From positions 1 to 7,541 of the IMG/VR virus record IMGVR_UViG_2645727593_000017: a DNA stretch of 7,541 nt. The stretch is one strand, 5' to 3'. Below are positions 1,120-3,737 of this stretch, in pieces. The stretch is from a virus (lineage: Duplodnaviria; Heunggongvirae; Uroviricota; Caudoviricetes). Position 1 is the stretch's first letter, and each line of letters starts with the position of its first letter. Both the position numbers and the translations under genes were made by a program. The notes beneath the pieces were generated by a model that was not told the origin of the DNA, made no database searches, and was given only the letters and a program-made list of their open reading frames with translations.

Positions 1120-1339
1120 GAGTTAAAATCTCCTTCAGTGCATCATCATCGCCAGTATGAATTTCCGGCGCAATTCCCGTTTCACCAGGTCCAACAAATA
1201 CTGCCCGGCGATCTATCAGCCAACGCCCACGAATTTTTTGTGGTCTTGGAACGATGTATCCTAGTTTTCCGTATTTCACCAGGGTAGTGTTTGTTATTGG
1301 GAGACTGAACCGTTTTGGTTTCCACTCGTCGAGCGTCAT
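1088..1339 (-). CDS. xis: Excisionase (Xis/AlpA-like winged-helix DNA-binding protein), about 83 aa
   Basis: The product MTLDEWKPKRFSLPITNTTLVKYGKLGYIVPRPQKIRGRWLIDRRAVFV resembles the lambda Xis N-terminus (LTLQEW ... winged helix). The 3' end overlaps the int start by 32 nt, the usual xis-int arrangement. The start is ambiguous: in-frame ATGs at 1339, 1348 and 1387. Confidence 0.75.
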   Translation of the reverse strand: MTLDEWKPKRFSLPITNTTLVKYGKLGYIVPRPQKIRGRWLIDRRAVFVGPGETGIAPEIHTGDDDALKEILTHVTEATKKQH

Positions 1340-2951
1340 CAAGTGCATTATGGCGCTCACCTTCGAATGGGATAGCCGTTCTGGCATCGAAGTCTATGGC
1401 TTTCCCCAGCTCAACGATTGTGCGTACATCGCGATCGTTGTAGTAACGCCACGGGCAGGGGATCCCCTGCCGTTCGTATGAACGGCGCAAAATCGTGTTG
1501 TCGAAGTTGGCTCCATTTCCCCAGACCTGAACAAAAAATTCACCGGAGTTTTCGTCGATAAATTCCCGCAATTGCAGTAGTGCATCATCTAACGGGATTT
1601 CATCGGTCATAATGGCAGACTGCGCTTCACGTGATTGCTTCAGCCACCATTTAATGGTGTCACGATCAATGACTCCGCCAGCAGTTTCCAGATCGATAGT
1701 CTTACTAAATTCCGGTCCCATATCTCCGGTTTGCGGATCGAAAAATATTGCACCTATTGAGATAATCGGGGCATCAGGATTTTTTCCCATGGTTTCAAGG
1801 TCGATCATTAGATGGTCACACGTCCTGCTGGTGGATGTGATAACGCGATGACCGTTCACCGTAATTAAGGGATCTGCCGTCTCGCCAGTTTCACTATCGC
1901 TGGCGTGATCCTGAGCGCTGCCAGCATTCTCCTTGTGTGGATGTTCAGCGCCTTCCATTTTCTCCGAATCGTCTTCCTGAACTTCAACCTGGTTCTTGTC
2001 ATCGAATGTTTCCTGGTATGTTGCGTCGCCCATCACCGCACCACAATCAGGGCAGTTGCCACCGCCGGTCTGACCGCAGGCGGTGCAGACTTTTTCCACT
2101 TCCTGTTGCGCCACTGGTTCAGGCTGTTTCGTTTCTGGCTCGTTTTGTAACGCATTTGGGCTGTTTTGTTCCGCTTTCTGGTCGTTCTGTTCCGTTTCTT
2201 GCTGGTTCTGGTTCACAGAATCGCGGGTTTCAATCCCCTTCACCCATTTCGGATCATTCGGGTCGCTAATCCCTGCAACAAATTCACCACGTGATGCGGC
2301 GAGCAACTGATTGGCGTCAGGCTGGCTGATATTGGCTGCCTGCATAATTTTGTTTACTTCGTCAGCGGTAACTTTTACCGGTTCTGGCTGTGCGGTCGTG
2401 TCAGATGCACCAGTATTTTGTTGTGAACCTGAGTATGTACTGTTTTTGCGGGCGAAATATTCTTCTTTCGTGATTTCAGTAGCCCCGGCAGCCAGCGCCT
2501 TATCCAGACCAGAAAGTTTGTTTGCGCGACCGTATTTTTCGCCATCCTTGTCGGTGAAGAGGAAGTAGAACGGCCCCTCACGCTCTACAGATGGTTCGAC
2601 TTCCACTTTGCATTCGGTTTTTTCGTTGTCCGGAATTGCCGTTTCCACTGCATCAGTTTCTGGTACTGGCGACGAGAGAGTATCAGTTGCGCTCTGATTT
2701 GTTCCTTCATCTTCAAACACGCCCTTTGTAGTCAGGTATTCAGTAATGTATTTGTTCAGTGCCACAGGATCTTTGTGAATGTCGATCGGACGTTCACGGA
2801 CAAGGCCAAAAATAGTCTGGCGGTCGTAGCGAAGGGCATCAGGCTGTTTGCGCATCGATGCCGAGATACGCTTCCAGTCTTCGCGGTCGTTGTCGATAAC
2901 TTCATTTTTTGCCCAGCGATGGATGCTGCCGTCAATGTTTCCGGCATCCAC
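1182..2951 (-). CDS. Large acidic protein with C4 zinc ribbon and C-terminal DEDDh (DnaQ-like) 3'-5' exonuclease domain; probably the downstream part of an ~850-codon frame interrupted by TGA at 2961-2963
   Basis: 589-codon ORF. Exo I motif MIDLETMG at nt 1788-1808, Exo II [12 protein letters not shown] around nt 1500-1517, Exo III HNALDDA (H-x-A-x-x-D-A) at nt 1332-1352. [15 protein letters not shown] (C-x2-C-x7-C-x2-C) zinc ribbon at nt 2043-2087. Q/E-rich acidic linker upstream of the ribbon. The ORF begins with GTG directly after an in-frame TGA, with no Shine-Dalgarno and no ATG until codon 33. Confidence 0.7.
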   Translation of the reverse strand: [589 protein letters not shown]

Positions 2952-2960
2952 ATCACCAGG

Positions 2961-3737
2961 TCAGAGAGCGTAGGCCAGTTCGTCATCCAGTGTTTTCCAT
3001 GTCTGCTTATATTCGCGACGAATGACTGCAGTGACAGGGGGGATTTTTTCTGCTGAGTTTTCAGTGTGCTGTCGGTGGACTCTGGCGCGGGCGAGATCAA
3101 CAACAGACGTGTATTTTCCGGTTTCCTTGCGTTCACCTTCGCGACGTTTTTTCCAGATGCGCATCTCTGCCTGAATTTCGGGCCATTTGGCACCAGGCTT
3201 ACATTTATGCTTAACCCACCCGATGGCATGCAGCTTAAGCTCCGGATACATGGCGTTAACTTCTGGCATTTTCATCAACGCTTCAACGATATGTCCGTCG
3301 AATGTTGCCATGTCTTCCTGCAACAATTCCTGCGCGCTAATCACCATATCAACGGTGATGTTTTCACATGTGTCGAACTTAACCATGACAGCGTTCTGTA
3401 CTTCAAGGGACAGTTTGTCAAAATTGACGTTCATCGGTTCGGATTCTGGTTCGACCGGAATAAAGGAAGCGGATTCCTCATCCCAGCGGTTTTCCTGCAT
3501 ATATTCGGTATCCCAGGAGTCGATAGCAGGGCGGGGCATGCCGGGTTTATCCTCGCAGATAAGAAATTTATAAGCGCAGTCCTGAGCAGCCGGATATTGC
3601 TCCAGGAATTGCCAGGTAAATTTGGCACGGGCGCGGCGTTCGTCACCGGCTTCAATGGCAGTGGCTACAGCAACTGCACCTTCTTCCTTTATTGCCTGTT
3701 CGTCCGGAATGGCGGCGCAAATAAAGACTTTACTCAT
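2961..3737 (-). CDS. Hypothetical acidic protein, 258 aa; likely the N-terminal part of the interrupted large nuclease gene
   Basis: ATG at 3737 with GAGG 10 nt upstream. Same strand and same reading frame as ORF 1182-2951, separated from it only by TGA-CCT-GGT-GAT. The composition looks protein-like, whereas the antisense ORF 3066-3755 is F/G/L-rich, typical of a mirror frame. No recognisable motifs. Confidence 0.6.
   Translation of the reverse strand: MSKVFICAAIPDEQAIKEEGAVAVATAIEAGDERRARAKFTWQFLEQYPAAQDCAYKFLICEDKPGMPRPAIDSWDTEYMQENRWDEESASFIPVEPESEPMNVNFDKLSLEVQNAVMVKFDTCENITVDMVISAQELLQEDMATFDGHIVEALMKMPEVNAMYPELKLHAIGWVKHKCKPGAKWPEIQAEMRIWKKRREGERKETGKYTSVVDLARARVHRQHTENSAEKIPPVTAVIRREYKQTWKTLDDELAYAL

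Follow-up and report, generated by a model that had tools for sequence, protein, structure and literature searches.

What does a Rac-type prophage carry when the slot that holds recET in Rac, between xis and kil, is filled by something else? The stretch analysed here, referred to as the window, comprises 7,541 nucleotides of viral DNA (positions 1 to 7,541 of the IMG/VR record IMGVR_UViG_2645727593_000017), and the frame that raises the question lies in this slot on its minus strand (1182-3737). An earlier note, written without database searches, had read this frame as a single 851-amino acid (aa) protein ending in a DEDDh 3'-5' exonuclease domain. We consider it likely that the window instead holds an early-left gene of a very common type in a copy that was inactivated recently, and that the intact 823-aa product is a tethered 3'-5' exonuclease, probably acting on DNA ends. 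The intact protein has three parts, a YdfE-type module (aa 1-258), a RecE-type tether (aa 262-626) and a DEDDh head of the DexA/Rv2179c type (aa 642-823).

Two lesions interrupt the exonuclease gene

Read on the minus strand, the frame 1182-3737 has a TGA at codon 259 (2961-2963), where intact relatives have TGG (Trp), and the listing of open reading frames (ORFs) splits it into products of 258 aa (2961-3737) and 589 aa (1182-2951). W259* is the sole amino-acid difference from the intact 823-aa protein of locus L001 (WP_061330130) across the 803 retained codons. The same TGA is present in the draft genome GCA_001266355.1 (L004), which is 99.9% identical to the window and lacks the second lesion, a deletion at the 3' end of the gene. 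In BLAST comparison with L001, window 1-1341 corresponds to L001 3001-4341 and window 1330-5365 to L001 4483-8518, which reveals a 153-bp deletion in the window with a 12-bp overlap at its ends. Imperfect repeats, TGATGACGCTCG and TGATAACGCTCG, flank the junction in a three-way alignment, and the loss is a microhomology deletion. It takes out the 20 final exonuclease codons (YQAKYVSVIWQKLIPSQADF), the stop codon, a 61-bp spacer and the seven first xis codons, and thereby fuses exonuclease codon 803 to xis codon 8. The resulting features, all on the minus strand, are as follows.

2964..3737 (-), codons 1-258, YdfE-type N-terminal module, now a 258-aa ORF of its own
2961..2963 (-), premature TGA at codon 259, next base C, read in the sequence and its translation
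1330..1336 (-), junction of the 153-bp deletion inside the repeat ACGCTCG, from BLAST comparison with both L001 and L004 plus the three-way alignment
1182..1328 (-), non-native 48-codon tail, xis DNA translated in the exonuclease frame in place of the native YQAKYVSVIWQKLIPSQADF

The top megablast matches in complete Escherichia coli genomes align in two pieces and span 3053 bp against a query of 2901 bp. With a query spanning the junction, the deletion was not shared by the top-ranked matches in complete E. coli genomes, and each full-coverage match listed covers 278 bp, again in two pieces. The window copy has neither the uninterrupted frame nor the native ends of a functional coding gene. 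Given the change from TGG to TGA and the 153-bp deletion, we conclude that the gene in the window is a pseudogene, most likely dead, and that the 851-aa frame is an artefact, which arises when both lesions are read through. The stop at 2961-2963 and the mapping of the deletion thus refute an intact 851-aa protein, and position 1182 is not a native 3' end, since the last 48 codons are xis sequence in the wrong register. Both lesions are recent, because the retained 803 codons otherwise match the intact WP_061330130 protein.

We also considered whether the split at codon 259 might be a natural, recurrent two-gene arrangement, as many database proteins of 561-564 aa start with MDAGNID. This was rejected as unsupported: the one such protein inspected (P0245) is a GTG-start call lying 127 nt off a contig edge, and most matches in the search are annotated as partial.

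The C-terminal domain is a predicted DEDDh 3'-5' exonuclease

The C-terminal part of the frame matches the Pfam family PF16473 (Rv2179c-like 3'-5' exoribonuclease) with an E-value of 2.7e-62; the cutoff of this profile is 27 bits, and the scores are 210 bits for the window ORF and 226.5 bits for the intact relative. The match covers profile positions 2-168 of 177 in the window copy and 2-177 in the intact protein. The full ExoIII helix is accordingly missing from the window copy, in which everything past R803 consists of out-of-frame xis codons, and is complete in intact relatives.

1329..1814 (-), codons 642-803, DEDDh exonuclease domain with most of its last helix gone, from the PF16473 profile
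1791-1802 (-), ExoI motif DLET at aa 646, read in the sequence
1500-1517 (-), ExoII motif NGANFD at aa 741, read in the sequence
1332-1352 (-), ExoIII motif HNALDDA at aa 796, read in the sequence

Residues D646, E648, D746, H796 and D801 align with D7, E9, D119, H186 and D191 of T4 DexA, and these columns are invariant. Structure prediction with AlphaFold2 was carried out on the intact relative P0237 and spans aa 260-823; it therefore describes the complete protein and not the truncated window copy. In this model the predicted local distance difference test (pLDDT) score of the head is mostly 80-94. A Foldseek search of the PDB with the P0237 model returned DexA first (8KEL, E 2.9e-10), followed by RNase T, Orn/REXO2 and ERI, consistent with a DnaQ-like fold in the modelled head. 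DexA was also the only PDB match by sequence (E 1.4e-6). On the Pfam match, the catalytic residues and the match between model and PDB, the C-terminal domain is a DEDDh 3'-5' exonuclease domain, the activity of which is predicted. The earlier note was right on this point, and the three motifs that it listed are present on the minus strand, as are the C4 zinc ribbon (CxxC-x7-CxxC) and the acidic Q/E-rich linker preceding the domain.

The central region is shared with RecE

The part of the protein that separates the N-terminal module from the head belongs to the RecE central region: aa 262-626 align with residues 278-592 of K-12 RecE at 39% identity (BLASTP, E 7e-60). From aa 478 on, over the ~150 last residues, the two sequences are nearly identical, and this similarity runs through the zinc ribbon and the acidic Q/E-rich stretch that comes after it. 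According to a review (PMC11611040), the RecE nuclease domain begins at residue 564, and the shared stretch stops about where this published domain starts.

1860..2954 (-), codons 262-626, RecE-type central region, a mostly disordered tether, from BLASTP against K-12 RecE
2448..2585 (-, approximate mapping), small predicted beta-beta-alpha domain in the tether at ~aa 385-430, from AlphaFold2 (model residues 125-170)
2043..2087 (-), zinc ribbon C551-x2-C554-x7-C562-x2-C565 (aa 551-565), from the motif in the sequence

In the AlphaFold2 model, pLDDT lies below 50 almost throughout the central region. The beta-beta-alpha domain is its only confidently folded part (pLDDT about 77-82), and confidence in the zinc ribbon is weak (about 48-62). 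The same zinc ribbon occurs in K-12 RecE (CNACGQTGGDNCPDC) and in only seven of 50 long family representatives, among which either nuclease head is found. Because RecE has both zinc ribbon and linker, these elements do not separate the window protein from RecE, contrary to the earlier note, which had presented them as a point of contrast.

The resemblance to RecE is confined to this region. The PD-(D/E)XK nuclease profile PF12684 is matched by K-12 RecE and found no match in the intact window-type protein, and phmmer with RecE residues 600-866 found no match in the DEDDh-head representative P0357. The N-terminal Exonuc_VIII profile PF06630, which RecE matches at E 6e-98, likewise had no match in the window-type protein. 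NCBIfam NF007259 (ExoVIII) gave a partial match over aa 246-626 only, with 275.5 bits against an equivalog cutoff of 1269. By nuclease domain, N-terminal domain and equivalog cutoff, the window-type protein is thus not a member of the RecE/ExoVIII family.

The N-terminus is a YdfE module

The ~500 N-terminal residues, which the earlier note could not match to any family, resolve into a YdfE module (aa 1-258) and the beginning of the RecE-like region from aa 262. Precomputed Pfam matches assign YdfE_N (PF27430) and YdfE_C (PF27432) to an identical 258-aa product and to its homologues, and aa 1-256 share 89% identity with the product of the K-12 Qin pseudogene ydfE, which is cut off by IS2. The module was found in 127 clusters, from Escherichia and Shigella only. 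Its structure model is mediocre (pLDDT 65.6), and a search with this model returned no informative structural neighbour.

The intact gene belongs to a catalogued and abundant family

In L001 and L002 the intact gene has 2472 nt, encodes 823 aa and is annotated as "exonuclease" or "3'-5' exonuclease" (PGAP). The intact protein matches PHROG 2082 ("exonuclease") end to end, from 1 to 823 of 823. Homologous DNA, annotated as exonuclease, is present in 4788 of the 5426 complete E. coli genomes, at a median of two places per genome, and 17 phage records, including that of the lambdoid phage mEp460, contain a copy at a coverage of at least 80%. The family is therefore already catalogued, by PHROG 2082, by the PGAP names and by the Pfam families YdfE_N PF27430, YdfE_C PF27432 and Rv2179c-like PF16473, and the K-12 Qin pseudogene ydfE is another remnant of a gene of this type. 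We found no functional study of a PHROG 2082-type exonuclease in the literature on Rv2179c and prophages, RecE and DEDDh, ydfE and Qin, or Rv2179c-like proteins and phages. Membership of a well-characterised family, which the earlier note had named as counting against its reading, is thus borne out in part: the family is a catalogued one, with a predicted function.

Copies of the gene bear marks of selection and of recombination between modules. Between intact copies, the ratio of nonsynonymous to synonymous divergence (dN/dS) is about 0.28 for the whole gene, 0.03-0.18 for the DEDDh head and 0.34-0.46 for the central tether. Between L001 and L007 (phage vB_EcoS-813R8), synonymous divergence (dS) is 0.05 in the head and 0.76-2.7 in the other two modules, a contrast that is the signature of recombination at module boundaries.

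N-terminal modules and heads are exchanged around the RecE tether

An exhaustive HMMER search with the central region returned 145 clusters among 1.84 billion representatives, and 50 representatives of at least 500 aa carrying this region were typed for their modules by phmmer. Among these 50, both N-terminal types were found with both nuclease heads.

YdfE_N with DEDDh head: P0357
RecE_N with DEDDh head: P0359, P0378, P0446, P0487, P0496
YdfE_N with RecE nuclease: P0383, P0452, P0459
RecE_N with RecE nuclease: P0423 and others

A third C-terminal head of about 250 aa, phrog_2489, sits on the same YdfE/RecE tether in P0409, P0418, P0421, P0425, P0443, P0455, P0490 and P0492. Its domain is labelled "exonuclease", "DNA repair protein" or hypothetical in phage records. 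Its conserved motifs FGP-G-GWG and KKSLTDA-KKALS-LGF resemble those of Rad52-type annealases, and the Pfam profile Rad52_Rad22 matches these heads consistently at sub-threshold values (E 0.002-0.16). A profile search of the PDB with this head was without match, and hhalign against an approximate human RAD52 N-terminal sequence gave a probability of 5%. As a Rad52-like annealase the head is thus an unproven candidate that failed the stricter tests.

Two side observations concern related proteins. Stand-alone copies of phrog_2489 occur in the Pseudomonas phages F116 and PMG1 and in Vibrio phages. In P0397 (703 aa), the RecE N-terminal domain (PF06630) and the central region are joined directly to a RecT domain (PF03837, E 1.2e-42), so that this protein looks like a recE-recT deletion fusion without nuclease.

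Taken together, the module combinations lead us to propose, tentatively and as a possibility rather than a probability, that the non-catalytic region of RecE is a head-agnostic delivery tether with two N-terminal modules and interchangeable heads, namely the PD-(D/E)XK 5'-3' nuclease, the DEDDh 3'-5' nuclease and phrog_2489, which is maybe Rad52-like. If this is true, the DEDDh version would give many annealase-less lambdoid phages a distinct activity on DNA ends, used in recombination or against competing DNA, and the family would represent a natural head-swap series for finding the binding target of the RecE tether.

The early-left operon is a Rac/Qin mosaic

The exonuclease gene sits between the excisionase gene and a kilR homologue, with the integrase gene also on the xis side. 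A 77-aa ORF is 81% identical to K-12 KilR, the 158-aa repressor is 91% identical to RacR, and YdaS/Cro-like, YdaT-like and HTH_36 replication(-initiator) genes are present in the window. The Rac-type context described in the earlier note, and the position of the gene in the recET slot, are borne out by these matches. The DUF1391 gene, ydfC, DicF and kil lie upstream of the exonuclease gene, and xis and int downstream. The small RNA (sRNA) DicF is represented at full length (Rfam RF00039, 1-52 of 52, 74.2 bits) at window 4262-4313 on the minus strand, between ydfC and kil. This makes the early-left operon a mosaic of Rac and Qin, in which RacR and KilR are combined with a Qin-type DUF1391 gene (ydfA-like), ydfC, dicF and a ydfE-type exonuclease gene.

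No window ORF matched RecT, Bet, Erf or Rad52, and no annealing protein is annotated in the early-left regions of L001, L002, mEp460 (where the order is dicB-ydfD-exonuclease-xis-int) and L007. The absence of an annealing-protein gene noted earlier hence holds for the window and for these intact loci, and the locus, having no adjacent annealing gene, is not a two-component recombinase of the RecET/Red type.

The deletion that truncates the exonuclease gene also damages xis.

1088..1336 (-), excisionase remnant, codons 8-89 and stop, its own start codon and upstream spacer deleted, from comparison with intact xis

Intact xis encodes 89 aa and begins MSEQYLITLDEW. In the 99-aa ORF of the window (1088-1387, -), the first codons derive from the exonuclease gene, the 3' end of which is here read in a different frame, and the Pfam profile Exc matches the window xis at E 1.2e-4 and 22.5 bits, just below the cutoff of 23. 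Loss of the xis start may impair excision of the prophage.

Further traces of exchange lie elsewhere in the prophage. In L001, a dicB fragment ("incomplete, missing C-terminus", PGAP) lies between kil and dicF at 7262-7345, corresponding by transfer to approximately 4109-4192 (-) of the window, which suggests that kil replaced dicB-ydfD by recombination in the lineage of the window's prophage. The immunity region (window 5366-6409) does not align to L001, to which the window is otherwise 99.6% identical; the window has a RacR-type repressor and L001 a different one, so that repressor and cro region have been cleanly exchanged as a module. The prophage is integrated beside potC/potD (L004 7863-9700; L001 130-1967) and not at ttcA, the site of K-12 Rac. 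It is Rac-like in its immunity region, yet distinct from Rac.

What the intact protein may do

In the mechanism that we propose, the intact protein would be made on derepression following loss of the repressor, along with the DUF1391 gene, ydfC, DicF, kil, xis and int. The head would act as a two-metal 3'-5' exonuclease, and DNA 3' ends are its most likely target: among characterised relatives, the nearest is a DNA exonuclease, and a DNA nuclease carries the same tether. The disordered RecE-type tether would localise the head, to the same site or partner as in the case of the 5'-3' nuclease of RecE. Any role in recombination would need host functions, because no annealing protein is co-encoded, and degradation of foreign or host DNA by the intact protein is equally compatible with the evidence.

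Several points weigh against this picture of a dead copy of a tethered DNA exonuclease. Faulty assembly of the source genome could account for the deletion, given that L004, the closest draft genome, is without it. The stop context UGA-C is known in E. coli as the leakiest, and tRNA-Trp, by misreading the UGA at codon 259 (window 2958-2963, -), would bring back the native Trp. An in-frame GTG lies at 2951, four codons past the TGA. A low-level product from UGA readthrough or GTG reinitiation is therefore possible, although the greater part of its ExoIII helix would be missing. Substrate (DNA or RNA) and role are extrapolated from distant relatives, with DexA being 28% identical, and the argument for delivery by the tether to a common partner is drawn from module sharing only. 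The dN/dS values, with few substitutions behind them, agree with an enzyme under selection that is attached to a linker under loose constraint.

Among the alternatives, a function of the intact protein in phage recombination or repair is a possibility to which we give well below even chances: the head would cut back 3' tails or 3' ends without homology, a task that DexA has when double-strand breaks are repaired in T4, with the host RecA pathway standing in for a phage annealing protein. The gene occupies the recET slot, it has 365 residues of tether in common with RecE, and the same tether bears the RecE 5'-3' nuclease in other prophages and perhaps also a third head with weak Rad52-like similarity. 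Full-length RecE, with nuclease and tether, is reported to enhance linear-linear recombination in the review (PMC11611040, citing Fu et al. 2012), and DexA is reported to act in intron homing (PMC12153337). On the other side, an annealing partner is not co-encoded, a 3'-5' exonuclease destroys the 3' tails required for strand invasion and annealing, and the Rad52-like assignment of the third head did not withstand closer testing. It is unlikely that the intact protein is instead an HREX-type nuclease for anti-phage defence or superinfection exclusion, which would spare unmodified host DNA and destroy the 5-hydroxymethylcytosine (5hmC) DNA of incoming T-even phages, the window then holding a dead copy of a defence gene; the low estimate takes in degradation of competing or host DNA in general. 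A precedent exists in EcD, an E. coli homologue of DexA reported to degrade T4 DNA and to protect cells against T4 (PMC12153337). The head studied here is of the same Pfam family, DexA is the solved structure nearest to it, and the gene is prophage-borne and very widespread. Operons of the early-left type already carry exclusion functions such as DicB, a further point for such a role. EcD is, however, a different protein, since its cloning primers give a start of MIDTET... and an end of ...TIPETY and the window-type head reads MIDLET...SQADF; EcD was thereby ruled out as the window-type protein. Moreover, the proposed 5hmC readers of DexA, W152 and D169, are not kept and align with Y766 and A781, an assignment that is tentative at 28% identity, whereas the DexA tetramer residue D90, the equivalent of which is lost in EcD, is retained as D718. 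PADLOC returned a weak generic DEDDh match only (E 1.7e-5), the position of the gene predicts expression from a repressed early-left operon and not constitutively, as for a typical lysogen defence gene, and the gene is also found in the lambdoid phage mEp460.

We think it improbable, more so than a defence function, that the head is an exoribonuclease like Rv2179c and acts on RNA, for instance in the processing or degradation of transcripts or sRNAs of its own operon such as DicF, or on RNA-based signals. The Pfam family has a 3'-5' exoribonuclease as its namesake, RNase T, Orn/REXO2 and ERI come next after DexA among the structural neighbours, and DicF is encoded in the same operon; against this, the closest relative by sequence and structure is the DNA exonuclease DexA, the tether is common to a DNA nuclease, and DNA is cut by RNase T as well, RNase T-DNA complexes being found among the matched PDB entries several times. 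That the two-lesion allele of the window still works, with readthrough by tRNA-Trp or reinitiation at the GTG yielding a full-length or two-piece protein with a tolerated altered tail, is very unlikely. The leaky UGA-C context, the native Trp that readthrough would restore, the in-frame GTG and the retention of all catalytic residues would allow for it, but the hydrophobic rest of the ExoIII helix (YQAKYVSVIWQKLI), a helix well predicted in the model of the intact relative, is swapped for an unrelated polar tail, readthrough normally reaches a few percent at most, and the deletion also removes the xis start, which fits general prophage decay. Next to no weight is left for the reading of the earlier note, in which a giant protein of 851 aa, intact and of a novel type, replaces RecET: its motifs and gene position are real, but the frame contains an in-frame stop and a chimeric 3' end, the family is catalogued and abundant, and the middle region is RecE-like.

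Significance

The window locus itself matters little, as a decaying copy of a gene already named by annotation pipelines and carried by most E. coli genomes. With the sequence family already known, the new point is a modest one, namely that N-terminal modules and nuclease heads are mixed around the RecE tether. Far from being unrelated to RecE, the window-type protein is RecE's tether with a nuclease of predicted opposite polarity, and older labels of the family as "exodeoxyribonuclease VIII" are misleading, since it is RecE-like in its non-catalytic part only. Natural and engineered head swaps, together with partner pull-downs, offer a concrete route to the role of the ~590 non-catalytic residues of RecE. 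The intact gene encodes an abundant and selected, putative exonuclease in prophages of the enterohaemorrhagic and enteropathogenic E. coli (EHEC/EPEC) type and is worth a biochemical assay.

Comparison with known systems

The nearest system is the PHROG 2082 family represented by WP_061330130, which is the same as the window product at 802 of the 803 retained residues and has a neighbourhood like that of the window, with kil or dicB-ydfD upstream and xis-int downstream; the window copy differs in its nonsense codon and 3' deletion. RecE of Rac in K-12 occupies the same early-left operon slot. Its head is a PD-(D/E)XK domain (DUF3799) of 5'-3' polarity, whereas that of the window-type protein is of the DEDDh type and predicted to be 3'-5'; its N-terminus is PF06630 rather than YdfE-type, and it is accompanied by an adjacent recT, which the window-type gene lacks. 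T4 DexA (PDB 8KEL/8KEN) is the closest solved structure by sequence and fold and has the five catalytic residues in common with the window-type head, but is a stand-alone protein of 227 aa with extra loops. Rv2179c of Mycobacterium tuberculosis, the namesake of PF16473, shares the Pfam domain family, and is a single-domain bacterial protein named as an exoribonuclease, in contrast to a domain that forms the head of a large phage mosaic protein. EcD of the HREX system (PMC12153337), also a stand-alone DexA homologue, presumably belongs to the same domain family and has conserved catalytic residues; the loss of the D90 equivalent, which is said to define it, is not seen in the window-type head.

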